Source: an uncultured Candidatus Saccharibacteria bacterium (GTDB lineage Bacteria > Patescibacteriota > Minisyncoccia > Phycocordibacterales > DATDWN01). Taken from it: a stretch of 64,000 nt of DNA. This document shows, piece after piece, positions 15,984 through 34,028 of this stretch. A model generated the notes under the pieces. That model was not told where the DNA came from, ran no database searches, and saw only the letters and a list, made by a program, of their open reading frames with translations. The stretch spans positions 175,161 through 239,160 of the forward strand of contig CAZQVT010000001.1 of NCBI GenBank assembly GCA_964596875.1, in the 5' to 3' direction. The position numbers and the translations under genes were made by a program. Positions within the stretch are counted from its first letter, which is position 1. Every line of letters begins with the position of its first letter.

Positions 15984-15984
15984 A

Positions 15985-16518: not shown

Positions 16519-16538
16519 ATATGTTAGATTAGGAACAT

Positions 16539-18039: not shown

Positions 18040-18056
18040 TTTGGTATAATTATTTC

Positions 18057-18359: not shown

Positions 18360-18360
18360 T

Positions 18361-19089
18361 ATGCCGGATGAGTTTCTAGTTAAAACACATATTTTTGAAG
18401 GTCCATTGGACACACTCCTTTCTCTTATTGAAAAAAGGAAACTTTTCATAAACGATATTTCACTTGCACAGGTTGCCGATGACTATATCGCGTATATAAA
18501 AACTCTAGAAAATTTTCCAATAGCCGACTCCTCACATTTTATTCTTATCGCATCAACCTTAGTTTTAATTAAATCAAAATCTTTACTACCAGACTTGCAA
18601 CTAACCCCCGAAGAAGAAGAAAACATTCACAACCTTGAGGATAGACTAAAGCAGTACCAAAAATATAAGGCACTTTCGCAACATTTGAAAGAAAAGTTTG
18701 GGATAAACATAGAGTACCTAAGACTTCCAAGCAAAGAAAAAAAGATCGTTTTTACTCCTGACAAAAACACTGACATCTCTAAAATGCGTGAAGCGGTAAA
18801 AATACTTATCCAAAACCTACCTAAAAAAGAATTCGTCCCAAAGGCTATAGTTCAAAAAGTTATTTCACTTGAGGAAATGATGGATAATTTGTCGGAAAGA
18901 ATCACAAAGAGTTTCAAAATGAGTTTTAAGGATTTTTCTGGACACGGCAAGGCGGAAAAGGTAAATGTGATAGTGAGTTTCCTTGCGATGCTTGAACTAG
19001 TAAAACAGGGGATAATAAATGTAAGACAAGATGCGGACTTTCATGATATTGAAATGGAGACACAATCCATCGGTGTTCCAAGGTATTAA
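18361..19089 (+). CDS. scpA: segregation and condensation protein A
   Basis: N-terminal FEGPLDxLLxLI signature. Confidence 0.85.
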   Translation: MPDEFLVKTHIFEGPLDTLLSLIEKRKLFINDISLAQVADDYIAYIKTLENFPIADSSHFILIASTLVLIKSKSLLPDLQLTPEEEENIHNLEDRLKQYQKYKALSQHLKEKFGINIEYLRLPSKEKKIVFTPDKNTDISKMREAVKILIQNLPKKEFVPKAIVQKVISLEEMMDNLSERITKSFKMSFKDFSGHGKAEKVNVIVSFLAMLELVKQGIINVRQDADFHDIEMETQSIGVPRY

Positions 19090-19090
19090 A

Positions 19091-19213
19091 ACTTCCAAAT
19101 TTGGCGATCTACTCGTTTCAAAATTGAAAATGTTCGTCACCTTACTACTTGTAAGGCTTCTCACATTTTCAATTCCTCAACTTTGTGTCTCATCCAAATT
19201 GTGAAAGTTTGTT
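19091..19213 (+). repeat. intergenic structured hairpin element, copy C
   Basis: outer stem ATTGAAAATG/CATTTTCAAT, internal loop TTCGTCA/CTTCTCA, inner stem CCTTAC/GTAAGG, 3' tail CAAATTGTGAAAGTTTG; homologous to copy D. Confidence 0.7.
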
Positions 19214-19236
19214 GTATAATAAAAATATAAAATAAA

Positions 19237-19770
19237 ATGAATTTAGAAAAACAAATTGAGGCAATACTTTTTTATACTGGGGAACCGGTGAAAATTAGTT
19301 TTTTGGCGAAAACTTTAGAAGTAAAAATAGATGCTATTCGCGAGGCGCTTCAAAACCTTGTAACTAGTTTGGAAAATAGAGGTCTAAAGATGGTGGAACA
19401 CAACGAGGAAGTCTCTCTCGTTACTTCACCTGAACTTGCACCACTTATAGAGAAAATCATAAAAGAAGAAAGAGAAAGAGAGTTGGGCAGAGTAGGGCTA
19501 GAGACTCTTACTATTGTGGCTTACAAAGGACCTATATCTAAAAAGGAAATAGAGTACATAAGAGGGGTAAACTCTCAATACGCTATACGAAACCTGCTTT
19601 TGCGTGGCCTTATAGAGCGAAATGGTGTGGATGGCAGGGTGGTTTACACTGTTACATCTGATACAATTAGATTTCTGGGACTTACAAAAATTTCAGACCT
19701 TCCAGAGTATGCAGAAATGAACAAAAGTCTAGAAGTGGCAGACGAAACAACAGATGAAGTAGAAGAGTAA
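19237..19770 (+). CDS. scpB: segregation and condensation protein B
   Basis: ScpB-like winged-helix repeats, 177 aa, downstream of scpA. Confidence 0.85.
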   Translation: MNLEKQIEAILFYTGEPVKISFLAKTLEVKIDAIREALQNLVTSLENRGLKMVEHNEEVSLVTSPELAPLIEKIIKEERERELGRVGLETLTIVAYKGPISKKEIEYIRGVNSQYAIRNLLLRGLIERNGVDGRVVYTVTSDTIRFLGLTKISDLPEYAEMNKSLEVADETTDEVEE

Positions 19771-19774
19771 AAAA

Positions 19775-20713
19775 ATGGAGCATCAAAAAATTTCTAAAAA
19801 ATTATATATATTTAATATTGTTTTGGTTTTGGCGGTAGTTTTCATGACTTTTCTTTTATACCAAAACTCTATTCAGAAAAAAGTTGAAAAAATAGTAAAA
19901 GCGAAGGTGGAGAAAAAAAGTTTGGCAATGTTTGAAAATGTAAATGTGAAAGCAAAAGCAGTTTTGGTTTACGACTTAGCTGACAACAGAGTTTTGTATG
20001 CAAAAAACGAGGGAACTCAGTTGCCACTTGCATCTATCACAAAACTAATGACGGCTTTGGTTGCTACAGAACTTTTACCAAAAGACTCCAAGATAACATT
20101 AAAAAGTGAGTTTTTGCGTGAAGAGGGGGACTCTGGCTTAGCGGTTTCAGAGTCTTGGAACCTAAAAGAGTTGCTAGACTTTTCACTTGTGACTTCTTCT
20201 AACGACGGTATGCGTTCAGTAGCGTCTGTTATAGGTGCAGTTAAACTAAACTCAAAAGACTATGACTTGGGAAGAAAAGATTTTATTGAAAAAATGAACA
20301 AGCGTGCAAAAGAGTTGGGTCTAGCACAAACTTTCTTTGTAAATGAAACAGGTCTTGATGTGGGCAATGTAAGTGGGGGATATGGCTCTGCAAATGATGT
20401 AACAAGTCTAGTAAAGTACATGATACGAAACAGACCAGAAATACTAGAAGCTACAAAGTTTCAAAAACTAACTATAGATTCTGATACAAAAAAACATACA
20501 GCAAAAAATACAAACGATATTGTAAACGAGATACCGGGACTGTTTGCATCTAAAACTGGATACACAGATATGGCCGGTGGAAACCTAGTTGTTGCTTTTG
20601 ATCCAAGTTTGGGTAAACCAATAATTGTTACTGTGTTGGGTTCTACACAAGATGGAAGGTTCACCGATGTGGAAACTCTAGTTGATGTAACACTAGATTA
20701 CTTAAACCAATAG
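19775..20713 (+). CDS. D-alanyl-D-alanine carboxypeptidase (S11, PBP5-like)
   Basis: N-terminal TM, SxxK motif SITK, SxN motif SSND, KTG motif. Confidence 0.8.
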   Translation: MEHQKISKKLYIFNIVLVLAVVFMTFLLYQNSIQKKVEKIVKAKVEKKSLAMFENVNVKAKAVLVYDLADNRVLYAKNEGTQLPLASITKLMTALVATELLPKDSKITLKSEFLREEGDSGLAVSESWNLKELLDFSLVTSSNDGMRSVASVIGAVKLNSKDYDLGRKDFIEKMNKRAKELGLAQTFFVNETGLDVGNVSGGYGSANDVTSLVKYMIRNRPEILEATKFQKLTIDSDTKKHTAKNTNDIVNEIPGLFASKTGYTDMAGGNLVVAFDPSLGKPIIVTVLGSTQDGRFTDVETLVDVTLDYLNQ

Positions 20714-20840
20714 AAAATTTTCAAATTTGGCCAATCTCATCTTCTAAATTTTCAAAATTCTCGTCACCTTAGCACTAACTAAGGCTTCTCACATTTTCAA
20801 AATTTATAAGCGACCTTGTCTCAAATTGTGAAAGTTTGAA
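20714..20840 (+). repeat. intergenic structured hairpin element, copy D
   Basis: inner stem CCTTAG/CTAAGG compensatory relative to copy C; conserved flanks and GTGAAAGTTTG tail. Confidence 0.7.
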
Positions 20841-20850
20841 AAGTTTTTGT

Positions 20851-20898
20851 AAACGAAAAGGCCGACACGATAGTCTGTATGACCTGATCGTATCGGCC
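20851..20898 (-). terminator. hairpin GGCCGA(T)ACGAT...ATCGT(G)TCGGCC + TTTTCGTTT ending GC-rich minicassette 3
   Basis: 11-bp imperfect inverted repeat followed by T run on - strand, just after stop of 20917 ORF. Confidence 0.55.
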
Positions 20899-20916
20899 GA
20901 AGCCCGTGTGTGTGGG

Positions 20917-21186
20917 CTAGAACCGCTTACTGACGTACTTGAGTGCTTCCCAGGTGAGTAACACCAGTGAGGAGTACACGATTGGCAGTGACGCCAGTCC
21001 GTACTCGTAGCTCTCGGTGAACATGGAGACCATGAGTCCCAGAGTCAGTACTCCGTGCAGAAGCAGGGGAACGAAGTACAGTACTATTGCAGGGAGAACG
21101 AGGCTAATGATTGCCCCGAACACCCTGAGCCACTTGTCGTCTCGATACCCGCCCATGAGGAGCGGGTTAAAGCCCAAGCATCCCAT
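20917..21186 (-). CDS. hypothetical small membrane protein (89 aa, ~2 TM), gene 3 of GC-rich minicassette 3
   Basis: ATG preceded by GGAGGAGCG; hydrophobic helices; GC-rich. Confidence 0.45.
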   Translation of the reverse strand: MGCLGFNPLLMGGYRDDKWLRVFGAIISLVLPAIVLYFVPLLLHGVLTLGLMVSMFTESYEYGLASLPIVYSSLVLLTWEALKYVSKRF

Positions 21187-21194
21187 CGCTCCTC

Positions 21195-21299
21195 CTACAT
21201 CTTGAAGGCGATAACCGCCAGGATTACGGCGATGCAGCCCAAGGCGAATTGGATTTCTCTTGTAGCCTTCTTGAAGTACTCGAACTGTTCTTCGGTCAT
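21195..21299 (-). CDS. 34-aa single-TM peptide (MTEEQFEYFKKATREIQFALGCIAVILAVIAFKM), gene 2 of minicassette 3
   Basis: not in ORF track (<60 aa); ATG 6 nt after TAGGAGGCT RBS; stop 8 nt before next ATG. Confidence 0.4.
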   Translation of the reverse strand: MTEEQFEYFKKATREIQFALGCIAVILAVIAFKM

Positions 21300-21309
21300 G
21301 CCTAGCCTC

Positions 21310-21735
21310 CTATCGAAGTTGGACCATCTCGCCGACCACGTCGTCCTTGCCTTCGAGGCTTTGGACGATGAAGTTGGTTGCTCCGCAGGCGTCGCAGAGG
21401 AACTTCACGACATCCATCTTCTGGATCTCGAGTTCCTCCACCTTGTCGATCGTGACGAAGTTCTTGTCGACGATCTTGCCGAGATGCACTCGGACCTTGC
21501 CCGTTGTGTTCAACTTGAACGCGATCACTCCGGGCTTGGTGTCGTACCGGAGCTTCATCCCGATGGCGCTGTGAGGCACGATGGTGAACTGGACGGAGTT
21601 TTCAAGTGCGATCGCGTACGGCTTCATGGGCTGGGTTGTTTCCACCCAGTAAACCATTGAAACTATCGCGACCGTGAGTGCGCAAATGACGAGTATTCCT
21701 CGCCAGTGGCGGGACAGAGTAGTGTCTTCGGTCAT
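21310..21735 (-). CDS. hypothetical membrane-anchored protein (141 aa, N-terminal TM), gene 1 of minicassette 3
   Basis: ATG 6 nt after GGAGGCC RBS, consensus promoter upstream. Confidence 0.5.
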   Translation of the reverse strand: MTEDTTLSRHWRGILVICALTVAIVSMVYWVETTQPMKPYAIALENSVQFTIVPHSAIGMKLRYDTKPGVIAFKLNTTGKVRVHLGKIVDKNFVTIDKVEELEIQKMDVVKFLCDACGATNFIVQSLEGKDDVVGEMVQLR

Positions 21736-21754
21736 GCTGTGGCCTCCGATATTA

Positions 21755-21782
21755 ATTATATCATTTATACAGTATAAGTCAA
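21755..21782 (-). promoter_or_regulatory. consensus sigma70 promoter TTGACT-16-TATAAT (on - strand)
   Basis: read from reverse complement; 5'UTR GTATAAATGATATAATTAATATCGGAGGCCACAGCATG is homologous to 5'UTR of cassette 6. Confidence 0.6.
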
Positions 21783-21798
21783 GGTATAAAAACCTTCA

Positions 21799-21828
21799 TT
21801 TTAGACACATTTCCGGCCTTAGGGTATA
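21799..21828 (+). promoter_or_regulatory. putative asnB promoter TTAGAC-18-TATACT, near-leaderless
   Basis: -10 element ends 8 nt before ATG at 21837; divergent from cassette 3 promoter. Confidence 0.3.
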
Positions 21829-21836
21829 CTTTGTAC

Positions 21837-23684
21837 ATGTGTGGAATATCAGGCGTTATAGGCCAAAATCTAGACGATAAAGAGGGTATTATAGGCAAAA
21901 TGGTAGAAAGGATTACTCACCGTGGACCAGACGATGATGGTTTTTATGTAGACAAAAGTGTGGGTCTTGGAATGCGTCGTCTAGCTATTATCGACCTTGA
22001 AACTGGCAGGCAACCTATAACATCCGAGGACGGCAAACTAATTATTTTTTTCAATGGGGAAATCTACAACTACAAAGAGTTGAAAAATGATTTAAAGAAA
22101 AAAGGACACAAGTTCACAACATCATCAGACACAGAAGTTATTTTGAAAATGTATGAGGAGCACGGCAAAGACATGCTACCAAAACTTCGTGGCATGTTTA
22201 CATTTTCTATATACAACACAGAAACAAAACATTTGTTTATCGCTCGAGACTTTTTTGGTATCAAGCCACTTTATTACCTGATACAAAATGAAAACATCGT
22301 GGCGTTTTCTTCGGAAATAAAATCCTTTATAGATTTCCCAGGGTTCCAAATGGAGGTAAACCACAACGCTGTTGTGAACTATCTTTCATTCCAGTACAAC
22401 CCACTTGTGGAGACATTTTTCAAAAATGTTTACAAACTTCCACCAGCACACTACCTGTCTATAGATACAGACAAAAATGAAATCGAAATCCAGAAATATT
22501 GGAGCATGTCTTTTGAACAAGACGAGACTTTGGACGAACAACTAACAGCTGACAAGATTTTGGAAACAATGAAAGACTCTGTTGAACACCACATGATAGC
22601 AGATGTTCCTGTCGGTGCTTTTCTTTCTGGAGGTATCGACAGTAGTATCATAACGACTTTGATGCAGGAAATACGCGGAGAAAAAAAGATCAAAACTTTT
22701 ACTGTTGGTTTTAACACCTTGACCGAGGGGGAAGAAGCAAAAGAAACATCTAGTTTCCTTGGCACTGACCATACTGAACTCAGTGTCGGTCCTGACGAGT
22801 ATTTTTCCGTGCTTCCAAAAGTTGTATACCATTTTGATGAACCTATTGCGGACCCATCTGCAGTTGGACTTTATTTTGTTGCACAGGAGGCGCGAAAACA
22901 TGTGAAAGTTGTACTTTCTGGTGAAGGATCGGACGAACTTTTTGGTGGATACAATATTTACCTAACTCCACAAGACTCCGACAAACTTTTATGGCTCCCA
23001 AAAAGCATTGTAAAAATGCTAACCAGTCTACCTTTTGAGTTTTACGGCAAAAACTATTTGCGACGTGTGTCTATGAAACTCGAAGACTGGTATATCGGCC
23101 AAAAGTATTTCAATGGCTCTATTTTTACACGCCAAGAAATAAAAGATTTGTGGAACGGTGGCAACGAAAAGTTTATGTCGCTTAGTTCGCTTTTCAAACA
23201 AACAAAGGGTCTGAGTGACTCTACCTCAATGCAGTTTATAGATATAAACACATGGCTGGTCGGAGATATTTTGGCAAAGGCAGACAAAATGACAATGGCA
23301 AACTCGCTTGAACTTCGAGTACCGTTTCTAGATACCGAGGTAGCAAAACTTGCTGGAACTTTGCCTGACAAATACAAATGGAAGGGTAAGGTAACAAAGT
23401 ACCTACTTCGTGAAGCTTTTAAAAATGTTATTCCAGAAAGTGCTCGAAACAGAAGAAAGCTTGGTTTTCCAACTCCTGTTAAGGACTGGTTTACAAAAGA
23501 CAGACAAGACGTGTATGACACTATTTTGCAAAACGAGTATATAAAAAAACACATGAATGTATACCGTATTCAAAATATTATTGATGACCACTTGGAAGGA
23601 AAGAGCGAAAACTCTAGAAAGATTTACACATTACTAATGCTCGCCCTATGGTACAATACTTTCATAAAAGCAAACCAAAAATAG
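21837..23684 (+). CDS. asnB: asparagine synthase (glutamine-hydrolysing), possibly peptidoglycan-amidating
   Basis: N-terminal MCGI nucleophile, SGGIDSS PP-loop; ATG 21837 preferred over TTG 21831. Confidence 0.85.
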   Translation: MCGISGVIGQNLDDKEGIIGKMVERITHRGPDDDGFYVDKSVGLGMRRLAIIDLETGRQPITSEDGKLIIFFNGEIYNYKELKNDLKKKGHKFTTSSDTEVILKMYEEHGKDMLPKLRGMFTFSIYNTETKHLFIARDFFGIKPLYYLIQNENIVAFSSEIKSFIDFPGFQMEVNHNAVVNYLSFQYNPLVETFFKNVYKLPPAHYLSIDTDKNEIEIQKYWSMSFEQDETLDEQLTADKILETMKDSVEHHMIADVPVGAFLSGGIDSSIITTLMQEIRGEKKIKTFTVGFNTLTEGEEAKETSSFLGTDHTELSVGPDEYFSVLPKVVYHFDEPIADPSAVGLYFVAQEARKHVKVVLSGEGSDELFGGYNIYLTPQDSDKLLWLPKSIVKMLTSLPFEFYGKNYLRRVSMKLEDWYIGQKYFNGSIFTRQEIKDLWNGGNEKFMSLSSLFKQTKGLSDSTSMQFIDINTWLVGDILAKADKMTMANSLELRVPFLDTEVAKLAGTLPDKYKWKGKVTKYLLREAFKNVIPESARNRRKLGFPTPVKDWFTKDRQDVYDTILQNEYIKKHMNVYRIQNIIDDHLEGKSENSRKIYTLLMLALWYNTFIKANQK

Positions 23685-23685
23685 C

Positions 23686-24741
23686 ATGACAGACGTTTTA
23701 AAAGTAGTAATCCCATCAGTTCTTACATTTCTTATAGGTATTGGTATTACTCCTTTTTTCACAAATATATTTTTTAAATATAAAATGTGGAAAAAGTCTC
23801 CTCGTACCCAAAATGCTGACGGGGTTTCAAAAGATTTTGCAGATACTCACAACACAACCGCAGAACTTTCTACGCCAAGAGTTGGAGGGGTTATTATTTG
23901 GGTTTCGGTTTTGTGTACGGTTATTATCATTTACTTTATCTCAAAGGTTTTTCCAAACGACCTTACTTTGAAACTAAACTTTTGGAGCAGAAGCCAAACA
24001 TACATACCTATAGGTACACTTATTTTTGCATCTCTTATTGGTCTTGCAGATGATCTTATGCAGATTTTTGGAAAAGGGGAGTATGCTCGAGATCCGCTTA
24101 TCTATAGAAAAATAAAAATATTTTTTATTAGTGTTATCGGGCTACTTATCGGTTTTTGGTTTTATGACAAGCTACAGTTTACCGCGATACATATTCCTTT
24201 TGACGGAGAGCTGGAACTAGGTCTGTGGTTTATTCCATTTTTGGTTGTCGTTATGCTTGGGGTTTTCTCTGGAAGTGTTATAGACGGTATGGACGGGCTT
24301 TCGGGGGGAGTAATGTCTGTTGTATTTACAGCATATTCTGTTATTGCTTTTACAAACAACCAGGTGGATATTTCTGCACTTTGTGCTGTTATTGCGGGAG
24401 GCATTTTGGCTTTTCTTTGGTTCAATATTCCACCGGCAAGGTTTTATATGGGGGAAACGGGGATACTGGGACTTACCGTAACACTTTCTGTTATAGCATT
24501 TCTAACTGACTCTGTTTTGGTTCTGCCACTTATTGCATTGCCACTAGTAGCAACTTCACTTTCAGTTGTTATACAGATAGTTGGTTACAAATATTTTAAT
24601 AAAAAAAGAGTTTTCCGTGTCGCGCCATTGCACCACCATTTTGAAGCACTAGGCTGGCCAAGGACAAAAATTGTTATGAGGTATTGGGTTATTTCCGTAG
24701 TTTGTGCAATCTCTGGGGTAATTATTTCAATAATTAGTTAG
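23686..24741 (+). CDS. mraY: phospho-N-acetylmuramoyl-pentapeptide transferase
   Basis: motifs GLADD, DGMDGLSGG, PLHHHFE; 10 TM. Confidence 0.85.
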   Translation: MTDVLKVVIPSVLTFLIGIGITPFFTNIFFKYKMWKKSPRTQNADGVSKDFADTHNTTAELSTPRVGGVIIWVSVLCTVIIIYFISKVFPNDLTLKLNFWSRSQTYIPIGTLIFASLIGLADDLMQIFGKGEYARDPLIYRKIKIFFISVIGLLIGFWFYDKLQFTAIHIPFDGELELGLWFIPFLVVVMLGVFSGSVIDGMDGLSGGVMSVVFTAYSVIAFTNNQVDISALCAVIAGGILAFLWFNIPPARFYMGETGILGLTVTLSVIAFLTDSVLVLPLIALPLVATSLSVVIQIVGYKYFNKKRVFRVAPLHHHFEALGWPRTKIVMRYWVISVVCAISGVIISIIS

Positions 24742-24746
24742 AAATT

Positions 24747-25859
24747 ATGGAGGAGTTTAGATATGAGTACGAACATGTGGGCAGAGATTCTGAAGATGTT
24801 GCAAAATCAGTAGAGTCAAAAAGAGCAGATAGAGAATTATACGATGAATTCCATGTATATTCAGTAGAGAATATTTCTGCGGCGTTAGATTCTTTGGATG
24901 AAGCAAGATTGGAAGAAGGCCTAAGTGCTGAATTAAGGGTTAAGGCACTTAACGGAAGATTAAAAAATGCTTACGCGTCTTTTATTCAAAGTTCTACATT
25001 TGAGGTTAAAAAGAGTTTAATTAGGGACTTGTCTCAAGATAGCGCCTTGCTTGATGAAATGTTAGATAAGTCGCTAGTAGTTAGTGATGTTGATGATATT
25101 CCTCCAGAAATGATTGCTAAAATTTTGAGATTAAGACTAGTTTCGAATGAAAGAAGGGAAAAAATTCTAAATGAGAAACTGGGAGAAATGTTGGGTGAAG
25201 TTAAAAAACAAATAATTGAAGGAATAAAACAAGGAATTGTTAAAAGGACTGAAGAAGAGGTGGATAAAATAATTAGTTCCTTTAGTTTTAAAACTTTTGA
25301 CCCATTTTTTATAGGTCATACAGCTTACGCACTTCATAATGCCAGTATAAGAGTTATAGAACTTGCGACAGATGTAAATGTTGAACAAGCACCTCATTTT
25401 ATTTTGCATGAAATAATGCATTCACTCTCTGGTATTACAATACTGGGAGAGAAAAATCCTATTGATGATAAGGTAGATACTATTACAAATCAAAGAGTTG
25501 GCTTGATGTTTTTTGGCTTCGATCACGAAAGCGGCAAATTAAATGGTAGAAAATTAGATTGGATAAATGAAGCTGTTACTGAAGAAATTACAATGAATTT
25601 ATCTGGGAAATCGGTGAATGTGTATTCTGTAGAAAGAAGAAAGTTAAAAAAGCTTTATGAACTAGGAGTTGATCGTGAAATAATATATAATGCATACTTT
25701 GAGGACTACAATCCTGACGATCCTGAAAGAGTTCCTCATTGGAAAAAGTTTGTAGCAGAACTAAAGAAAATTTTCCCGGATATGTCTGTTTTGCAAGCAT
25801 TGGAACATGTTAGTTCTTTGGTAGAAGAAGAGATTAAAAATGAAAAAACTCAAAGTTGA
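24747..25859 (+). CDS. hypothetical protein with HExxH motif (HEIMH) in the murD position of the dcw cluster
   Basis: 370 aa, acidic, no Mur ligase motifs. Confidence 0.45.
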   Translation: MEEFRYEYEHVGRDSEDVAKSVESKRADRELYDEFHVYSVENISAALDSLDEARLEEGLSAELRVKALNGRLKNAYASFIQSSTFEVKKSLIRDLSQDSALLDEMLDKSLVVSDVDDIPPEMIAKILRLRLVSNERREKILNEKLGEMLGEVKKQIIEGIKQGIVKRTEEEVDKIISSFSFKTFDPFFIGHTAYALHNASIRVIELATDVNVEQAPHFILHEIMHSLSGITILGEKNPIDDKVDTITNQRVGLMFFGFDHESGKLNGRKLDWINEAVTEEITMNLSGKSVNVYSVERRKLKKLYELGVDREIIYNAYFEDYNPDDPERVPHWKKFVAELKKIFPDMSVLQALEHVSSLVEEEIKNEKTQS

Positions 25860-26940
25860 TATACCATTTTTAATATCAGTTGTGATTTTGGTAGTTGGAG
25901 GCTACCTTATTTTTCGTTCTGCATCTTTGGGACTACTTTCTAAACAGTCTCTAAAGTACGCAGGTGTTGCTTTCAACCAAACTGTTTTTGGACTTATAGG
26001 TGGAACGATCATTTGTTTTATTACCTCTAAAATAGACTATAGAGTCTACCGAAAATTTGCCTTTCCTATACTTATTGGTTCTGTCATAGCCACACTTTTG
26101 GTTTTTGCACCCGGAATCGGTTTTGCTCACGGAGGTGCGCACAGATGGATAAAAATCGGTACACTTTCATTCCAACCTTCTGAGTTTCTAAAGATCGGCT
26201 ATATTATTTTTCTTGCGGCATGGTTTGCCTCGGTAAAAGATAGAGTAAAACAGTTTAAATACGGGCTTCTGCCTTTTATGATTGTGTCTGGGATTGCGGG
26301 TATAGTTTTGCTCATACAGCCGGACACAGATACTTTTATGATCACTGTGTTTGCTGGTCTTGCGATATATCTTTCTAGTGGAGGACAATGGAAACATATT
26401 TTGGTTTTGGGAATTTGTTGCGTTCTTGGTATTGGTTTACTCGCAATGCAGAGGCCGTATGTAAAAAGTAGAATCATGACTTTTATAAATCCAGCAAATG
26501 ACGCACTGGGAAGTGGTTATCAAATCCAACAGTCACTTATTGCGGTGGGAAGTGGAGGAATGTTCGGGCGAGGTTTCGGACAAAGTATTCAAAAGTTTAA
26601 TGTACTTCCGGAACCTATCGGAGATTCTATTTTTGCTGTAGCAGCGGAAGAGTTCGGTTTTGTTGGTGCTGTTGGGATAATATTTTTGTTTATATTTTTT
26701 GCTGTTCGTGGGCTTAAAATTGCCTCAAACACCACAGATGCTTTCGGTAGACTAATGGTTGTGGGAATTGTTATAATGATTTCAACTCAAGCCTTTGTAA
26801 ACATAGGTGCGATGGTGGGAGTTTTGCCACTTTCGGGTATTACTTTGCCTTTTATAAGTCATGGTGGTACGGCATTGTTTATGACACTTGCAGAGGTTGG
26901 AATCATATTAAACATTTCGAAGTTTAGGAAAAATAAATAA
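25840..26940 (+). CDS. ftsW: FtsW/RodA/SpoVE family peptidoglycan glycosyltransferase
   Basis: 10-TM SEDS protein, 366 aa. Confidence 0.85.
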   Translation: MKKLKVDIPFLISVVILVVGGYLIFRSASLGLLSKQSLKYAGVAFNQTVFGLIGGTIICFITSKIDYRVYRKFAFPILIGSVIATLLVFAPGIGFAHGGAHRWIKIGTLSFQPSEFLKIGYIIFLAAWFASVKDRVKQFKYGLLPFMIVSGIAGIVLLIQPDTDTFMITVFAGLAIYLSSGGQWKHILVLGICCVLGIGLLAMQRPYVKSRIMTFINPANDALGSGYQIQQSLIAVGSGGMFGRGFGQSIQKFNVLPEPIGDSIFAVAAEEFGFVGAVGIIFLFIFFAVRGLKIASNTTDAFGRLMVVGIVIMISTQAFVNIGAMVGVLPLSGITLPFISHGGTALFMTLAEVGIILNISKFRKNK

Positions 26941-26952
26941 CACATCCTCATT

Positions 26953-27078
26953 ATGAATCCCGTAAGAAATTATTTAGTTAAAAGGATGAATGTGGTTATG
27001 TGTGATAAAATTATTCGAACAAACATTATTATTAATTTTATATACGGAAACTAAAGTTTCCTATTTCAAACGGGATGA
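26953..27078 (+). promoter_or_regulatory. structured leader / TIR element L2 enclosing murG start codon
   Basis: 5' arm ATGAATCCCGTAAGAAAT, penultimate hairpin ACGGAAAC-TAAA-GTTTCC, 3' arm TATTTCAAACGGGATGA. Confidence 0.6.
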
Positions 27079-28208
27079 AAATATTACTTACTGGTGGAGG
27101 TAGCGCAGGACATTTTTACCCACTTGTTGCGGTTGCACAAAAACTAAATGAACTAGCAAAAGAAAACAGGCTTTTGAAACCAGAGTTGTACTATATGTCG
27201 ACTGACCCTTTTGACGAAAACCTTTTGTACGAAAACAGTATTACCTTTATAAAAGTAAACGCGGGAAAAATCCGAAAAGATAAAACACTTTCGAACAGAA
27301 TCCTAAACTTTATGGATTTGTTTAGTACTTTTCACGGAGTGCTTACAGCGCTTTGGAAAGTTTTTGTTATTTATCCAGATGTAGTTTTTGGAAAAGGGGG
27401 CTATGTGAGTTTCCCAGCACTTTTTGCAGCAAGGTTTCTAGGAATACCGGTAGTGATACACGAGTCAGACAGTAAACCTGGAAAAGTAAACGCTTGGGCT
27501 GGAAAGTTTGCAACAAAAGTTGCGGTTTCATACCCCGATGCCGCTTCATACTTTAAGGCTGAAAAAACTGCCTACACCGGTAACCCGATAAGAAAAGAAA
27601 TAGAAGACCCACAAGTTTCTGGTTCACACGAGCATTTTGGTTTCGACAGCAGTATACCTACAGTTTTTGTTATAGGTGGTTCACAGGGTGCTCGTTTCAT
27701 AAACAGCGCTATCATGGATGCTTTGCCAGAACTTGTAAAGAAATACCAAGTCATACATCAGACGGGCGTAAACAACCTTTCCGTTATTCAGGAGACTTCT
27801 GCGGTGGTGCTTTTAAACAGTGAACACAAGGAAAGATACGTGGCAATACCGTACCTAAACGCCCTAAACCTGCGTATGGCGGCGGGGGCTGCAGATGTGA
27901 TAGTATCACGAGCAGGTTCAACTATATTTGAAATAGCGAGTTGGGGCAGGGCTTCTATTATTATCCCTATCCCAGAGCCAACAAGTCATGACCAAAAAAC
28001 AAACGCTTATGCCTATGCTAGAAGTGGCGCTGCGGTTGTAATAGAAGAAAAAAACATGGCACCAGGAATACTACTAGCAGAGATACAAAGAGTAGTAACT
28101 GTTGAAAAAGAAAAAATGCAGGCTGCAGCAAAAGCATTTTCTAGAAGAGATTCTGCAAGACTCATAGCCGAAGAGTTGATAGCAATCGGCCTACAACACG
28201 AGAGATGA
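27075..28208 (+). CDS. murG: undecaprenyldiphospho-muramoylpentapeptide beta-N-acetylglucosaminyltransferase
   Basis: N-terminal ILLTGGGSAGH motif, GT28 fold. Confidence 0.85.
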   Translation: MKILLTGGGSAGHFYPLVAVAQKLNELAKENRLLKPELYYMSTDPFDENLLYENSITFIKVNAGKIRKDKTLSNRILNFMDLFSTFHGVLTALWKVFVIYPDVVFGKGGYVSFPALFAARFLGIPVVIHESDSKPGKVNAWAGKFATKVAVSYPDAASYFKAEKTAYTGNPIRKEIEDPQVSGSHEHFGFDSSIPTVFVIGGSQGARFINSAIMDALPELVKKYQVIHQTGVNNLSVIQETSAVVLLNSEHKERYVAIPYLNALNLRMAAGAADVIVSRAGSTIFEIASWGRASIIIPIPEPTSHDQKTNAYAYARSGAAVVIEEKNMAPGILLAEIQRVVTVEKEKMQAAAKAFSRRDSARLIAEELIAIGLQHER

Positions 28209-28220
28209 TTAAAATTAACT

Positions 28221-28303
28221 CATCTGCGTTGTTGCAGTTCAGTTTTGTTCGTTCACCTTACTACTTGTAAGGCTCACTCACAAAACATCCTGCGCCTAGC
28301 ATC
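28221..28303 (+). repeat. intergenic structured hairpin element, copy B
   Basis: ~95% identical to copy A over ~85 nt. Confidence 0.7.
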
Positions 28304-28336
28304 TGAACCAATTTAAATCATCTCAGAACAAATTAT

Positions 28337-29800
28337 ATGAACGATAAAAAAGTAGTAACAAGATTCGCACCTAGTCCAACTGGGTTCATGCATATAGGCG
28401 GTGTTCGCACTGCTCTTTTTGCATACTTGTACGCTAAAAAAATGAAAGGTACTTTTATACTTCGTATCGAAGACACTGATAAGGCACGAGAAGTGGAAGG
28501 TTCAATAGGTCACATACAAGAGTCGCTAAAATGGCTAGGTATCGACCCAGACATAGGTCCAAACAATCCTGGCGAGTTCGGTACTGTTATCCAGTCTGAG
28601 AGACTTCCATCATATCTAGAGTATGCAAATAAACTAATAGAAAAAGGTTTGGCATATCCTGACCCCTATACTGCAGAAGAACTAGATGCTTTTCGTAAAA
28701 AAGCTGAGGAAGAAAAAAGACCTTTTCTGTACCGTGACCACAGACCAGAAAAATTTGAAACTTGGGATGGTAAAAAACCTTTGCGTCTAAAAGTTCCAGA
28801 AATAAAAAGATACAAATGGACCGATGCTGTTCGTGGTGAACTGGAGGCGGGACCAGAAGCACTAGATGACTTTGTGCTTATCAAAGCAGACGGATATCCG
28901 ACATACAACTTTGCACATATTATAGACGACTTAAACATGGGCGTGACACATATCATGCGCGCTGATGAGTTTATTTCTAGCATGCCAAAGTTTCTTTCAC
29001 TATATGATGCACTTGAAATCCCATATCCTGTTTTTGTAACACTTCCTCCTATACTTAAAGACGACCGCACAAAAAAACTTGGTAAAAGAGACGGAGCAAA
29101 AGATATTTTAGAATACAGAACAGAGGGATATCTGCCAGAAGCCATGGCAAACTTTCTCGCACTTATCGGTTGGAACCCGGGTACAGAACAAGAAGTATTT
29201 ACAAAAGATGAACTTATAAACGCATTTGAAATAGAAAAAATTCAGAAATCTGGAGGCGCATTTAACGAGGAAAAACTAGACTGGATGAACAAAGAGCACA
29301 TGAAAAGATTGGACTTAAAAACTGTAACAGACGAGATTGTTTCTCGTCTAAAAAAGTGTGACAAGTTTCAAAATAGTGAAAAGTTTGAAGACTCTGCATT
29401 TGTAGAGAAAGTTTGTCATATAATCTTTGACCATATTTCAAAATGGGGAGATGTAGATGTACAAGCAGGGGAGGGGGAATATGACTTTTATTTCGGCATA
29501 CCCGCATATGACACTACCCTACTTTCATGGAAGGGAAGTAGTCTAGAAAACTCCAAAAAACACCTTGAGTGGGTTTTGGAGAAACTATCTAGTTTGAATG
29601 AAGTAGAGTTTGCAGACGCAGAAAAAATAAAAGCGCATATTTTTGACTATGCTACAGAACAAGGACGTGGTGATGTATTGTGGCCGCTACGAGTTTCACT
29701 TTCTGGCCTAGAAAAAAGCCCTGACCCATTTTCACTTCTTTCTATATTTGGAAAAAATGAAAGCATAAACAGAATAAAAAATGCATTAAATAAGTTGTAA
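28337..29800 (+). CDS. gltX: glutamate--tRNA ligase
   Basis: N-terminal RFAPSPTGFMHIGGVRTALF (HIGH), KLGKRDG (KMSKS-like). Confidence 0.9.
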   Translation: MNDKKVVTRFAPSPTGFMHIGGVRTALFAYLYAKKMKGTFILRIEDTDKAREVEGSIGHIQESLKWLGIDPDIGPNNPGEFGTVIQSERLPSYLEYANKLIEKGLAYPDPYTAEELDAFRKKAEEEKRPFLYRDHRPEKFETWDGKKPLRLKVPEIKRYKWTDAVRGELEAGPEALDDFVLIKADGYPTYNFAHIIDDLNMGVTHIMRADEFISSMPKFLSLYDALEIPYPVFVTLPPILKDDRTKKLGKRDGAKDILEYRTEGYLPEAMANFLALIGWNPGTEQEVFTKDELINAFEIEKIQKSGGAFNEEKLDWMNKEHMKRLDLKTVTDEIVSRLKKCDKFQNSEKFEDSAFVEKVCHIIFDHISKWGDVDVQAGEGEYDFYFGIPAYDTTLLSWKGSSLENSKKHLEWVLEKLSSLNEVEFADAEKIKAHIFDYATEQGRGDVLWPLRVSLSGLEKSPDPFSLLSIFGKNESINRIKNALNKL

Positions 29801-29805
29801 AAATA

Positions 29806-31077
29806 ATGAGATGGCAGAAATACATACTTTTTCTAATACTCCTACTTTCAACTAGTATTGCTATTGCCCAAAACGCCACAACTTCAGAAGTTCTAAAAAA
29901 CAAAATCGACGAAAGAAACAACCAGATAAAAAAACTTGAAGAAGAAATAAAAGTCTACAACAAAGAAGTAGAAACTGCTGGCAAACAAGCCAAGACTTTG
30001 CAGACTACACTAAAAACTCTTGACCTTACCAAAAAGAAAATCGAAACGGATATTTCGCTTACAGAAAACAAAATAACTAAAACTACCCTAACTATAGATC
30101 AACTTGGTCAAGAAATAGGTACTACTAGAAGCAAAATAGATGTAAACAAACAGGCTATAAGTGCGGCACTCAAAAATAGACAGTACATGGACAGTACTGA
30201 CTTTATTAGTATGATGCTGTCGAAAAAAAGTCTGGGTGAAATATGGGGCGACATAGACGACATAGAGGAAGTTCGTGAAGCGATACGTGTAAAGACTTTG
30301 GAGTTAGACTCTCTAAAGAAAAATATGGAAAACAATCAAGAAAATCTAAAAGGTGAAAAGACCAACTTGGTTACCCTAAAACAAGACCTCTCTGGTAAAA
30401 AACAAGCCGTAGAATACACAACTCAGGAAAAGGCTGCGGTGCTAGTTGAAACAAAAAATAAAGAACAAACATACAAAGAACTTGTAAAAACAAAACAACA
30501 ACAAAAAGATCAGTTCGAGAAAGAACTTTTCGAATACGAGTCACAACTAAAATATCTTATCGACCCAAACAGTTACCCTAAAGGTAGAAGCGGAATTTTT
30601 GCGTGGCCACTAGATAAAGTTATCATTACACAAAAGTTTGGTAAAACTGTTGGCGCAGAAAAACTATACGCATCTGGTAGTCACAATGGTGTAGACTTTG
30701 GCGCAAGTATTGGAACAAGAGTTAAAAATGTTTTAGACGGAGAAGTTGTGGGTACAGGGGACACAGACAAATACCCTGGCTGTTACTCTTTTGGTCGCTG
30801 GGTTATGGTAAAACACGGCAATGGTCTCTCTACAATATACGGACACCTTTCTGTGATAAGTGTGCAGAAAGGTCAAACACTTAAGACTGGAGATACGATA
30901 GGTTTTTCTGGAAACACAGGTTACTCTACTGGTCCGCATTTACATATATCTGTTTATGCGACTCAAGGTGTGCGTATAGAAAAATACGTAAATAGTAGGG
31001 GATGTAAAGAGGCGACTCTCCCACTTGCCGACATCAAAGCCTACCTAGACCCACTGGCATACTTCCCATCACTTTAG
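29806..31077 (+). CDS. M23 family metallopeptidase with N-terminal coiled coil (EnvC-like)
   Basis: signal/TM, long coiled coil, HNGVDFGA...GNTGYSTGPHLH M23 motifs. Confidence 0.85.
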   Translation: MRWQKYILFLILLLSTSIAIAQNATTSEVLKNKIDERNNQIKKLEEEIKVYNKEVETAGKQAKTLQTTLKTLDLTKKKIETDISLTENKITKTTLTIDQLGQEIGTTRSKIDVNKQAISAALKNRQYMDSTDFISMMLSKKSLGEIWGDIDDIEEVREAIRVKTLELDSLKKNMENNQENLKGEKTNLVTLKQDLSGKKQAVEYTTQEKAAVLVETKNKEQTYKELVKTKQQQKDQFEKELFEYESQLKYLIDPNSYPKGRSGIFAWPLDKVIITQKFGKTVGAEKLYASGSHNGVDFGASIGTRVKNVLDGEVVGTGDTDKYPGCYSFGRWVMVKHGNGLSTIYGHLSVISVQKGQTLKTGDTIGFSGNTGYSTGPHLHISVYATQGVRIEKYVNSRGCKEATLPLADIKAYLDPLAYFPSL

Positions 31078-31101
31078 GCATATATTTGGTATAATAAACA
31101 T

Positions 31102-31308
31102 ATGAAAAAACCTAGAACAAACCAAGGATTTGTAGTGAAAATTGTTTTGATCATCGTTGCGCTTATCTTTGTGAAATACTATTTCCATATAGATATAGTT
31201 GAATGGTATAAGTCTCCTACAGGCCAAAAGTACGTTGGAAGTATCTGGAATATGATAAAGGACTTCTACAACTGGGCCGACAACTACGCTAGGACTAAGG
31301 TGTTTTAG
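31102..31308 (+). CDS. small hypothetical membrane protein (68 aa)
   Basis: ORF only; stop abuts stop of convergent RloB-like gene. Confidence 0.25.
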   Translation: MKKPRTNQGFVVKIVLIIVALIFVKYYFHIDIVEWYKSPTGQKYVGSIWNMIKDFYNWADNYARTKVF

Positions 31309-31830
31309 TTACGAATTGAATAATTTATGTATTTCAGGAAAGTATGTTTTGAAAATAATATTGTTTGGTATTATCTTTATTAAATCAATATTTTTCATGT
31401 GTTGTGCTTCCTTGCCGAAGTGGCTCAAAAAATTCTTTTTACAGATGGATCTGAAATTTTTTGAATCGATAGTATTTTTGATTTTTTTACCCACTATTTC
31501 CAGTAAGACACCCTCTGGATTGGGGTTACATAATTGAACTTTGTGGCGAAGACCTTTTATGTATAGTGCTATTTTTTGAGAATCATCAAGATCGTAGTCC
31601 GCCATAAAAAAGAAGTGGATTTTCTCACTTAGTTTTTTTGGTTTAATTTCATACTTTCGTGTTAAGCTAGAAACTTTATTACTGAAAGTCTTTAAGTCAT
31701 TAAACCCCCCCATAATCTCATATTTAAAAGATAAGGGCTTTGAGCAAAAATAAGTTTTGAAAAATCCAAAAAGATTGTATTCTGTGGGTCCTTCACAACA
31801 TATCACATATACATCCTTGGTACTTCTCAT
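31309..31830 (-). CDS. RloB-like (TOPRIM-like) protein, AbiLii-like
   Basis: N-terminal VYVICCEGPTEYNLF matches RloB family CEGxxTExxYF signature; 14 nt downstream of AAA_21 ATPase gene. Confidence 0.6.
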   Translation of the reverse strand: MRSTKDVYVICCEGPTEYNLFGFFKTYFCSKPLSFKYEIMGGFNDLKTFSNKVSSLTRKYEIKPKKLSEKIHFFFMADYDLDDSQKIALYIKGLRHKVQLCNPNPEGVLLEIVGKKIKNTIDSKNFRSICKKNFLSHFGKEAQHMKNIDLIKIIPNNIIFKTYFPEIHKLFNS

Positions 31831-31843
31831 AAATAGTTTATTT

Positions 31844-34007: not shown

Positions 34008-34028
34008 GAGCGCAGACAACCACCACAC

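Follow-up and report, generated by a model that had tools for sequence, protein, structure and literature searches.

Between mraY and ftsW, in the place that murD takes in the canonical dcw cluster, a gene for an HExxH-motif protein is situated in the genome of an uncultured Candidatus Saccharibacteria bacterium, and an asparagine synthase gene precedes mraY. Does the HExxH protein stand in for MurD, and what might the two genes contribute to a cell-wall operon? These questions were addressed in a 64-kb window (the whole stretch of DNA analysed) and in related loci.

Gene order of the locus

Five genes were identified head-to-tail on the + strand by ORF and domain calls: asnB (21837..23684; TIGR01536 526 bits, GATase_7, Asn_synthase), mraY (23686..24741; PF00953, E 1.7e-21; TIGR00445 154.5 bits), the HExxH gene, hereafter X (24747..25859), the SEDS family gene ftsW (25840..26940; PF01098, E 2.4e-93; TIGR02614 330.5), and murG (27075..28208; PF03033, PF04101; TIGR01133 232 bits). 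This order and its coordinates, as proposed earlier by a sequence-only reading, were borne out, including a 1-nt gap between asnB and mraY (end at 23684, start at 23686) and a 20-nt overlap of X and ftsW (end at 25859, start at 25840). Judged by these domain matches, the mraY product is a divergent phospho-MurNAc-pentapeptide transferase for lipid I synthesis, which scores under the TIGR00445 cut-off of 192 and is 90-92% identical to close relatives; the ftsW product is a SEDS-family peptidoglycan polymerase (TIGR02614 cut-off 337.5) and the murG product a lipid II synthase. A 134-nt AT-rich spacer situated 5' of murG in the window is absent from relatives.

The gene order, including the 20-nt overlap, was also observed in the independent assemblies L002, L034, L037, L038, and L039, and in L001 as far as the ftsW start, where the contig ends. 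In every clade member examined, X starts 5 nt past mraY and shares its last 20 nt with ftsW. Due to this spacing X is probably co-transcribed with the mraY-ftsW operon, and ftsW translation is probably coupled to X. Promoter and terminator scans at the locus gave scores no better than shuffled sequence. Upstream of the operon, a D-Ala-D-Ala carboxypeptidase gene (Peptidase_S11, 19775..20713, + strand; PF00768, E 7.7e-36) is syntenic in relatives, and an M23 peptidoglycan endopeptidase gene (29806..31077, + strand; PF01551, E 4.7e-26), whose product has a coiled-coil N-terminal part, comes after the GluRS gene and is syntenic clade-wide.

The mraY-ftsW junction and murD

Among 80 related loci with MraY proteins 54-91% identical, 74 were informative at the mraY/ftsW junction. 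In 62 of these 74, mraY is directly followed by ftsW, murG, the GluRS gene, and the M23 gene, with neither murD nor X in between. No Mur ligase was found near mraY in any of the 80 loci, and none of the large ORFs scanned across the window contains a Mur-ligase domain, so that the earlier statement that murD is missing from the cluster is supported. Because 62 of 74 loci lack both genes, murD was lost from the cluster lineage-wide and before X arrived. Hence the proposal that X sits in the murD slot did not hold. X occurs at this junction only in the closest clade of the window; outside the clade the lone independent adjacency to mraY was observed in the Doudnabacteria genome L014.

That X is itself a highly diverged MurD or other Mur ligase has, in our estimate, practically no chance of being right. 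Its position between mraY and ftsW is the sole point in favour, and it is countered by the empty junction of the relatives, by the lack of any Mur_ligase, Mur_ligase_M or Mur_ligase_C match and of P-loop features (in line with the missing Mur ligase motifs recorded earlier), and by a structure of helices, a small sheet, and an HExxH helix that matches gluzincin peptidases. Moreover, L014 carries a true MurD (PF08245, PF02875, PF21799) alongside X. Fold and domain evidence thus refute this candidate.

The AsnB-type amidotransferase

The asnB ORF extends from 21831 to 23684, with the functional start at ATG 21837 giving MCGISG with the N-terminal Cys nucleophile; the PP-loop reads SGGIDSS. Its sequence identity is 45% with B. 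subtilis AsnB (verified ASNB_BACSU), 38% with C. glutamicum LtsA, and 39% with M. tuberculosis AsnB, versus 30% with E. coli AsnB. Inserts, a sequence motif, and E. coli residues serve as criteria for telling mDAP amidotransferases from asparagine synthetases (PMC8554201). Both inserts and the motif GDILxKADKxTMANSLELRVPFLD, common to the AsnB/LtsA type, are present. With respect to identity, inserts, and motif, and in comparison with the four enzymes named, the protein looks like a long AsnB/LtsA-type enzyme resembling mDAP amidotransferases and not like an E. coli-type asparagine synthetase; long paralogues that do not amidate mDAP, AsnO and AsnH, exist as well. It would be expected to amidate the mDAP epsilon-carboxyl on lipid-linked peptidoglycan precursors; the earlier reading had suggested peptidoglycan amidation from the gene linkage. 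This linkage recurs in relatives, asnB directly preceding mraY in 12 of the 74 informative loci.

It is less likely that the enzyme is an ordinary asparagine synthetase supplying Asn and that its adjacency to mraY is coincidental. The protein scores above the TIGR01536 'asparagine synthase' equivalog cut-off, asnB is located directly 5' of mraY in only 12 of the 74 related loci, and an E. coli asn auxotroph is reported to be rescued by B. subtilis AsnB (PMC8554201), indicating a promiscuous family. Against this, the nearest proteins are verified mDAP-amidating enzymes that share its inserts and motif, the Asp-binding residues D384 and R387 of E. coli AsnB are replaced by I and K, respectively, and the score against the E. 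coli AsnB model NF006949 is 366 bits with a cut-off of 499. A GatB fragment in the relative L117 together with an archaeal-length AspRS in the window suggests a tRNA-dependent route to Asn-tRNA. Regarding the earlier interpretation as a whole, the AsnB type and the absence of murD stood, while X in the murD slot did not.

Family, fold, and predicted active site of X

X was correctly described as an acidic 370-aa protein with an HEIMH motif (pI 5.06; 70 D+E versus 50 K+R). Neither a signal peptide nor any hydrophobic stretch or TM segment was found in X, and 40 family members are likewise free of TM-like stretches. The family is large, unannotated, and apparently Patescibacteria-centred, with members across many CPR phyla. 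HExxH and a downstream Glu do not vary among 40 homologues which share only 16-27% identity with X (48% in case of one close relative), so that HExxH is not a chance match; the HEIMH-position motif is likewise invariant in a set of 27 homologues. Invariant residues comprise H221, E222, and H225 of the predicted zinc-binding/catalytic motif (residues 221-225; 25407..25421), G252, W272, E275, T278, Y293, and E319, and N274 and E279 are nearly invariant. E275, the predicted third zinc ligand, lies in the WINEAVTE 'Glu helix' (25560..25583).

X was modelled twice with AF2, the first model (pLDDT 78, moderate quality) being used for the fold search and the second reaching pLDDT 94.4 and pTM 0.91; helix 271-286 around E275 is present in both. 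Foldseek with the pLDDT 78 model against the PDB returned weak matches to selecase, lethal factor, and IrrE, all with E >0.2, and the X profile gave one weak PDB match, IrrE (E 0.003), over the strand and HExxH. In hhalign, the profile of a CPR M1 aminopeptidase was matched with only 7.9% probability. The modelled fold of X is an M1-like gluzincin fold, and the protein would be soluble and cytoplasmic. Because this fold is combined with an intact HExxH...NExxTE...Y set, X is predicted to be an active, presumably zinc-dependent metallopeptidase, whose N-terminal helical domain may recognise a substrate or partner.

A hypervariable cassette in X

Proteins flanking X are 82-93% identical to those of relatives, X itself only 43-48%. 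The divergence is confined to a cassette of approximately codons 14-290 (24786..25620, approximate boundaries), which takes in the helical domain at the N-terminus as well as the sheet and loops of the catalytic part, and for which at least five deeply diverged alleles occur among seven sequences. This feature, new here, was missed by the sequence-only reading. Between L034 and L038, nucleotide identity is 93-100% in the flanks and 31-68% in the cassette, the edges being sharp, at nt ~40 and ~910; at the amino acid level MraY and FtsW show 100% identity, with a dS of 0.13-0.25, and flank dS is 0.13-0.27 compared with >1.5 in the cassette, dS being saturated for most pairs of the seven alleles. 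The reverse incongruence was observed for L002 and L039, with a dS of 0.30 for X and 1.59 for ftsW. In case of L001 and L038, 112 differences occur in X, which are patchy, mostly transitions, and without A bias, and 100 of which fall within nt 16-660, next to 3 differences in 830 nt upstream and 0 in a further 149 nt of flank. The cassette borders are also marked by breaks of the metagenome contigs L040, L120, L035, and L036. Inside the cassette omega is 0.16-0.45, indicating purifying selection. The C-terminal ~78 residues (25623..25859, the last 20 nt overlapping ftsW) lie outside the cassette, show dN of 0.03-0.15 and dS of 0.17-1.7, similar to the flanking genes, and are nearly invariant in alignment A1. 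Due to the fact that similar flanks accompany divergent cassettes in some strains and the reverse holds in others, the pattern points to old alleles shuffled between strains by recombination.

All X sequences originate from MAGs or metagenome contigs, several of which (L040, L120, L035, and L036) end at cassette borders, and one could presume chimeric assembly or binning as the source of the variability. We consider this very improbable: intact ORFs with all catalytic residues occur in seven independent assemblies (NCBI, JGI, Logan), allele P0006 is identical in three samples and P0004 represents four member sequences, the locus is spanned by contigs of 21-266 kb, and the codon-level purifying selection speaks against an artefact.

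Possible roles of X

An association of X with the cell wall, as suggested earlier, is weakly supported, since the neighbours of X in most of 31 distant loci are unrelated housekeeping genes (DEAD helicase, CTP synthase, Glu dehydrogenase, UvrD, HAD, and others). X might nevertheless be a genuine cell-wall or division factor whose operon position reflects its function. It could, e.g., be a cytoplasmic peptidase with the stem peptide of UDP-MurNAc-pentapeptide or of lipid I/II as its substrate, or act on MraY, FtsW or MurG as a protease or regulator. The invariant spacing in the clade is in agreement with this, as are the second MraY adjacency in L014 (Dac-MraY-X-...-MurD-FtsW), Dac-X in L025, FtsW near X in L017, and a DUF3298/PdaC-domain gene next to X in L003; X adjoins mraY in 2 of ~32 lineages, compared with ~0.07 expected by chance in a rough post hoc estimate. 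We nonetheless regard such a role as rather unlikely, given that the same operon lacks X in 62 of 74 close relatives, that X in L014 comes with a Phd/PIN toxin-antitoxin pair and an amidohydrolase and looks like an accessory insertion, and that ~50% amino-acid divergence between alleles is unexpected for an essential-pathway enzyme.

With a similarly low probability, X serves in conflicts, for example as a protease that senses phage or brings about abortive infection, or else in symbiosis or host interaction. Its variable helical domain would then be under frequency-dependent selection, with X only hitch-hiking in an essential operon for expression. The shuffled alleles, some of them from one metagenome project, would fit, as would the toxin-antitoxin pair of L014, which is located two genes 3' of X within one inserted block, and the IrrE/ImmA-type regulatory proteases among the fold relatives. 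Elsewhere, too, X evolves fastest in its neighbourhood (29% vs 46-65% for L022/L024; 57% vs 65-83% for L023/L033). However, PADLOC gave no match for X or six relatives, no homologue was found in IMG/VR viral contigs and no structural match in BFVD, X stands alone with no partner gene conserved across lineages, and its spread over many CPR phyla is unusual for defence genes. Furthermore, the omega values give no sign of positive selection, and a signal peptide or TM segment that would suggest an exported effector is lacking.

Proposed picture

The reading we favour, with somewhat better than even confidence, is a peptidoglycan 'membrane-steps' operon with an LtsA-type AsnB, into which X, with its recombining cassette, was inserted in one clade. 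In this Patescibacteria (CPR) lineage, MraY would make lipid I and MurG lipid II, FtsW would act as the SEDS polymerase, and AsnB would modify the lipid-linked precursors. Nowhere in the wider clade does the cluster include murD or another Mur ligase. X would have been acquired at the junction in one genus-level clade and is probably co-transcribed. Its alleles would be swapped by homologous recombination, for which the conserved mraY end on one side and the 3' end of X together with ftsW on the other serve as anchors. It is tempting to speculate that the alleles are maintained by an interaction of the helical domain that is antagonistic or specific to a partner. A cell-wall operon would hold a zinc-peptidase-like gene whose front two-thirds is exchanged between strains like a cassette.

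Comparison with known systems

With the canonical dcw cluster (mraZ-rsmH-ftsL-ftsI-murE-murF-mraY-murD-ftsW-murG-murC-...) the locus shares the mraY...ftsW-murG core on one strand with tight spacing. It differs by the absence of murD and of other mur, fts, and ddl genes nearby, in the window as in the 80 related loci, by its flanks (scpAB-dac upstream, gltX-M23 downstream), by the additional upstream asnB, and, in one clade, by X.

For asnB, the closest systems are the AsnB/LtsA enzymes (B. subtilis AsnB, C. glutamicum LtsA, L. plantarum AsnB1, L. monocytogenes AsnB), which share the Ntn Cys, the PP-loop, a 'long' architecture of ~615-640 aa, and two inserts missing from E. coli AsnB. The location beside lipid I and lipid II genes agrees with LtsA working on lipid intermediates, as described in PMC7920481. 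Unlike these enzymes, the present one comes from a Patescibacteria genome.

X resembles M1 aminopeptidases (leukotriene A4 hydrolase, aminopeptidase N, ERAP1; clan MA(E) gluzincins) in HExxH on the active-site helix, in the Glu helix (W-[LI]-N-E-A-V-T-E compared with WLNEGFA, 'WLNE'), and in a conserved downstream Tyr. The second His and the Glu, however, are 41-68 residues apart (median 49.5) instead of 18, the GxMEN exopeptidase motif is absent from 40/40 members, and a ~180-residue N-terminal helical domain is found in place of the M1 N-terminal beta-sandwich and C-terminal ARM-like domain; PF01433 matches 1/40 members, only at E 0.002. With the soluble, cytoplasmic ImmA/IrrE regulatory metalloproteases (PprI; Peptidase_M78/COG2856) X shares its solubility and location and a 'G-Y-D...I-x-I...HExxH' strand-helix unit, over which the IrrE match extends, but PF06114 matches 1/40 members below threshold, HTH or GAF partner domains and an adjoining repressor gene are lacking, and X has a different third-ligand distance and a larger C-terminal helical subdomain.

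Mosaic genes whose conserved ends enclose a hypervariable core that recombines, such as the flagellin gene fliC with its central domain and the type I R-M gene hsdS, provide an analogy only. As in these genes, identity drops sharply between conserved flanks, deep allele classes are shared across lineages and discordant with flank history, and patchy gene-conversion-like tracts occur. Unlike these examples, X is enzyme-like, soluble, and cytoplasmic, neither a surface antigen nor a DNA-specificity subunit, and its variable part includes the catalytic sheet, although no catalytic residue is lost.

Gene order at the mraY-ftsW junction

The gene order asnB-mraY-X-ftsW-murG put forward by the sequence-only reading, in which X denotes a 370-aa protein with an HEIMH motif, was recovered exactly when the coordinates were rechecked. 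All genes are located on the plus strand. The AsnB ORF (21831-23684), with its functional start at the ATG at 21837 (MCGISG), is followed after a gap of 1 nt by MraY (23686-24741), X (24747-25859), SEDS/FtsW (25840-26940), which overlaps X by 20 nt, and MurG (27075-28208). AsnB, MraY, SEDS/FtsW, and MurG were confirmed by Pfam and NCBIfam, which gave nothing significant for X. Genes encoding AspRS, ScpA, ScpB, and an S11 DD-carboxypeptidase are situated upstream of the operon, and GluRS and an M23 endopeptidase downstream. The same order with the 20-nt overlap occurs in the close relatives L002, L034, L037, L038, and L039, and in the relative L001 it is identical as far as the start of ftsW, where the contig ends. 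An AT-rich spacer of 134 nt separates ftsW and murG in the window (26941-27074); the corresponding gap is 5 nt in L034, and the two genes overlap in L002. The G+C content of the window is 37% and its relatives carry Patescibacteria/CPR labels. Rfam and ARAGORN found neither tRNAs nor Rfam families in the window, and promoter and terminator scans yielded signals no better than those of shuffled sequence.

X had also been proposed to occupy the position of murD, which turned out to be wrong. Scanning the large ORFs of the 64-kb window revealed no Mur-ligase domain, and no Mur ligase was found nearby in any of the 80 loci of a metagenome scan anchored on MraY (54-91% MraY identity), 74 of which are informative for gene order. 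In 62 of these 74, MraY is directly followed by FtsW, MurG, GluRS, and M23, with ScpA-ScpB(-Dac) upstream. Since these loci run from MraY into FtsW with neither X nor a Mur ligase, the murD-less cluster characterises the entire clade and is older than X. Among the MraY-anchored loci, X is present at the junction only in the closest one (L040, 91% MraY identity) and is already missing at 78% identity (L041). Small ORFs between mraY and ftsW in the loci L043, L050, and L057 were ruled out as remnants of X, and the 84-aa homologue P0010 is merely a fragment cut by a contig end. The annotation expectation is thereby corrected: the dcw core of the whole clade is mraY-ftsW-murG, and therefore a gene at this junction should not be read as a replacement of MurD. 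A literature search returned no paper on the X family or on the CPR dcw arrangement of the window.

The canonical order is mraY-murD-ftsW. In a Doudnabacteria MAG (L014:3970-12761) this order is broken between mraY and murD by an inserted block comprising X, a 524-aa amidohydrolase, a Phd/PIN toxin-antitoxin pair, and a 181-aa ORF. Because this block also follows mraY, insertions seem to recur at the position downstream of mraY.

A hypervariable, probably recombining cassette within X

When the window is compared with its relatives, the products of the genes around X show 82-93% identity, whereas X itself shows 43-48%. This divergence is more than simply fast evolution. In L034 and L038, MraY and FtsW show 100% aa identity and dS values of 0.13-0.25, compared to a dS of about 1.0 for X overall and about 1.8 in codons 21-210. 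Along this pair, nucleotide identity is 93-100% up to approximately nt 40 of X, 31-68% until approximately nt 900, and at least 93% from approximately nt 910 onwards. The reverse pattern is given by L002 and L039 with a dS of 0.30 for X and 1.59 for ftsW. L001 and L038 differ at 112 positions in X, versus 3 in the 830 nt upstream and none in the 149 nt downstream; 100 of the 112 differences lie within nt 16-660. The differences form patches, consist mainly of transitions, and are not biased towards adenine.

Most simply, these patterns would reflect an exchange of ancient, divergent alleles of codons ~14-290 by homologous recombination, with the conserved flanks serving as anchors. Because omega is 0.16-0.45 inside this cassette and 0.01-0.07 in the flanks, the cassette is coding and constrained, though less than its surroundings, and all catalytic residues of X are kept across its alleles. 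The C-terminal 78 residues of X, which appear "extraordinarily conserved", simply share the history of the flanks. A diversity-generating retroelement was rejected as the source of the variation, given that no repeat within 15000-35000 involves X and that the spectrum is dominated by transitions and not A-specific. Among the seven close X sequences, at least five allele classes can be distinguished; several of the sequences originate from one metagenome project. The contigs of L040, L120, L035, L036, and L001 end at or inside the cassette; L036 is a contig of 1182 nt with essentially X alone, and L120 begins at approximately residue 300 of X. When several alleles coexist in one sample the assembly graph breaks, and contig ends at the cassette are thus expected, so the cassette also accounts for the assemblies breaking at this locus. 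X is the most diverged gene of its neighbourhood also in two other lineages (L022/L024 and L023/L033), but not in L003/L006.

We consider this strain-level cassette within an essential operon the most interesting result of the analysis. A sharply bounded, recombining hypervariable segment in an otherwise 90-100% conserved essential operon is unusual, and it gives access to selection acting at the level of strains, be it through phage, host, or partner specificity, in organisms for which culture on their own is not yet possible.

The X family and its predicted fold

X is an acidic protein (pI 5.06) without hydrophobic segments; HEIMH corresponds to residues 221-225. Only seven close homologues were present in the word-indexed database, and almost nothing new came up when the family alignment or the trimmed catalytic core was used as the query. 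A pattern scan of GTDB genomes added 31 distant relatives in Saccharibacteria, Paceibacterota, Magasanik-, Nomura-, Doudna-, Kerfeld-, Kaiser-, Levy-, and Peribacteria MAGs, and in a few MAGs labelled otherwise. An exhaustive HMMER search recovered 835 cluster representatives (clusters defined at 50% identity) at E<=1e-3 and 552 at E<=1e-10. The family appears to be centred on the CPR. In alignments of 27 and 40 members, H221, E222, H225, G252, W272, E275, T278, Y293, and E319 are invariant and N274, E279, and Y317 nearly so, which results in the signature HExxH, 41-68 residues (median 49.5), W[LI]NE[AG]VTE, and then Y. None of the 40 members contains a TM-like stretch.

The AF2 model of X reached a pLDDT of 78 from nine sequences, and a pLDDT of 94.4 with a pTM of 0.91 from the 40-sequence MSA. 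The better model consists of a helical N-domain (~16-177), a five-to-seven-strand sheet, and a helical C-subdomain, with the conserved N-terminal residues 7-11 forming a strand. In both models HExxH is placed within helix 215-227 and E275 within helix 271-286, i.e., X combines an HExxH helix with a Glu on a downstream helix, as is characteristic of gluzincins, and H221, E222, H225, and E275 are invariant in all 40 homologues. The predicted mixed sheet, active-site helix, and helical lower subdomain correspond to the thermolysin-like catalytic fold. A profile search of PDB sequences retrieved IrrE at an E value of 0.003 over 36 residues only, covering the strand and HExxH. Foldseek with the pLDDT-78 model, on which the fold assignment rests, found no significant match in PDB and BFVD. 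Because of the invariant residues, the AF2 models, and the IrrE match, X is, as modelled, a gluzincin-fold protein.

Searches with the X sequence covered Pfam, NCBIfam, PHROGs, and PADLOC. For the 40 members, Pfam gave only scattered sub-threshold zincin matches (SprT-like, DUF6782, M78, M1). Likewise, Phage_Gp15 (E 5e-4, residues 281-350), phrog_706 (E 0.004), and Cas3d (E 0.008) are sub-threshold and are attributed to chance or to distant similarity of the zincin C-subdomain. Membership in peptidase family M1 was rejected: the second His and the Glu are separated by 41-68 residues (median 49.5) and not by X18, the GxMEN exopeptidase motif occurs in none of the 40 members, PF01433 is matched by a single one (E 0.0022), and hhalign against an alignment of CPR aminopeptidase N gave a probability of 7.9%, which lends M1 homology no support. 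Peptidase_M78 (ImmA/IrrE) was rejected as well, with PF06114 matched by 1 of 40 members (E 0.0023). That X might be a highly diverged MurD, an objection the sequence-only reading had raised against itself, is certainly excluded. Pfam and NCBIfam found no Mur_ligase_M, Mur_ligase_C, MurD-like N domain, or P-loop, the predicted fold is that of a gluzincin, and the same scan detected a true MurD coexisting with X in L014.

Among the gluzincin peptidases, X stands for a new variant at the family level that lacks an annotation. It is quite likely an active zinc peptidase, and the reading to which we commit is a predicted Zn-dependent endo- or oligopeptidase of the cytoplasm, in which the variable helical domain would pick the protein or peptide partner. 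With its clear catalytic signature and a high-confidence model, the family is ready for definition and biochemistry.

Possible roles of X

Across the family, X is found next to genes encoding a DEAD helicase, CTP synthase, Glu dehydrogenase, UvrD, HAD, and other proteins, and no conserved gene neighbourhood was found. X had been suggested to be a novel cell-wall-associated metalloprotein. This holds as far as an unannotated predicted gluzincin family is concerned, whereas a role specific to the cell wall appears unlikely. The family-wide neighbours are of no help here. The tight operon position in the clade of the window, the independent Dac-MraY-X arrangement of the Doudnabacteria MAG, and a Dac-X pair in the locus L025 speak for such a role, as does adjacency to mraY twice in ~32 lineages, which exceeds chance by a rough estimate made after seeing the data.

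A role specific to conflict, to which the allelic cassette and the toxin-antitoxin pair located two genes downstream of X within the inserted block of L014 would point, is just as doubtful, since PADLOC gave no meaningful match for X and six relatives, no relatives were found in IMG/VR, and the BFVD structure search was negative. The same PADLOC scan was positive elsewhere, with an AbiLi-like gene 5 kb from X. A phage-borne origin of X was rejected on the IMG/VR result. General proteolysis or another role takes the probability that is left beside the cell-wall and conflict roles.

It is tempting to speculate, at somewhat longer odds than for either specific role, that the CPR possess in X a type of polymorphic cytoplasmic protease not described before, composed of a conserved gluzincin catalytic core and C-terminal module and an allelic N-terminal recognition domain. 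Many ancient alleles of the helical recognition domain would persist and be passed between strains by homologous recombination, and an antagonistic interaction, e.g., the sensing or cleaving of phage or host-bacterium proteins, would be the driving force. Its position inside the essential lipid II operon, together with translational coupling, would make X difficult to silence or lose.

Other features of the window and its relatives

On the minus strand within 31309-33052, shortly after the M23 gene, a candidate abortive-infection pair is made up of an AbiLi-like AAA ATPase (402 aa, PADLOC E 5e-55) and a weakly AbiLii-like partner (173 aa, E 3e-4).

A 55% G+C island (20860-21740, minus strand) lies between dac and asnB, compared to 37% G+C for the window. 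It contains three minus-strand ORFs without Pfam matches, encoding a 141-aa protein with an N-terminal TM segment, a product of ~35 aa, and an 89-aa membrane protein. The island is found at 66-76% nt identity in L002 and L040 and is partly kept in L001; a strong promoter-like site (TTGACT-16-TATAAT with TG, 21782-21755) faces it. Just past the dac stop, an intergenic element of ~88 nt (20731-20818) is 82% identical to intergenic sequence of a distant CPR MAG (L006:12744-12830) and partly common to the locus L042 (1746-1802). It was undetected in the closest relatives and has no Rfam match. Its hairpin shows compensatory changes (CCTTAGCACTAACTAAGG, CCTTACAAAAAGTAAGG, CCGTACTACTGTACG), and a small RNA, a regulatory motif, and a mobile element are all conceivable.

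A 100-aa ORF between AspRS and ScpA (18057-18359) matches the lycopene cyclase domain (PF18916, E 3e-8), which is unexpected for a reduced CPR genome. On the minus strand, the ORF at 55171-56481 (436 aa) has no Pfam match, the one at 44700-46091 (463 aa) only a weak GlxA barrel match, and the one at 46154-47350 (398 aa) a weak FtsA match (E 5e-4), by which it might encode a divergent actin-like division protein.

AsnB and peptidoglycan amidation

The Ntn Cys at MCGISG and the PP-loop FLSGGIDSS of AsnB are both intact, in line with a class II glutaminase domain and an SGGxDS synthetase domain. In PMC8554201, AsnB homologues that amidate mDAP are described as clades apart from E. coli AsnB, AsnO, and AsnH, lacking an Asp-binding D and R and containing an extra loop. 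References were ASNB_BACSU, LtsA (the single AsnB homologue of C. glutamicum), M. tuberculosis AsnB, and E. coli AsnB, each verified by exact look-up. Against these references, window AsnB reaches 45% identity with the B. subtilis enzyme, 38% with LtsA, and 39% with the M. tuberculosis enzyme, compared to 30% with E. coli AsnB. It shares with the first three an insert of ~18 residues and one of ~70-80 residues, both missing from E. coli AsnB, the longer of which falls between the SGEGSDE and KADK motifs. The stretch DIxTWxxGDILxKADKxTMANSLELRVPFLD is nearly identical in window AsnB and the three amidating-type references. In the HMMER alignment to 1CT9, a K is opposite E. coli R387 and an I opposite D384, the two residues that we take to be the D and R of PMC8554201; window AsnB thus resembles the mDAP-amidating type in lacking them as well as in having the extra loop. 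The idea of peptidoglycan amidation is supported at the sequence level by these identities, inserts, motif, and missing residues, and window AsnB probably belongs to the mDAP-amidating clade, as judged from a comparison without AsnO and AsnH.

According to PMC7920481, LtsA acts on lipid-linked intermediates. Taken together with the placement of asnB beside mraY and murG, this makes it rather likely that window AsnB amidates the mDAP of lipid I/II. AspRS is of a short (464 aa), archaeal-like type (16645-18039), and GatB is encoded at the locus of a relative (L117:8037-9086), which suggests that Asn-tRNA is formed by the tRNA-dependent route and would render a biosynthetic role of AsnB less necessary.

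AsnB is located directly upstream of MraY in 12 of the 74 informative loci, all with at least 61% MraY identity. In farther relatives a Cys-rich protein of ~580 aa, a VanY/M15-like gene, or both are found in its place. The Cys-rich protein, with many CxxC pairs and sometimes two to three tandem copies, occurs in 24 loci (L060-L118, e.g., L111:2539-4272); the VanY/M15-like gene (~280 aa, minus strand) often adjoins it upstream of mraY.

To our knowledge, the cell-wall chemistry of the CPR is almost unstudied. We predict that these Patescibacteria make amidated peptidoglycan of the mDAP type, as do Bacillus and the Corynebacteriales, with the amidotransferase encoded together with the lipid I/II enzymes.
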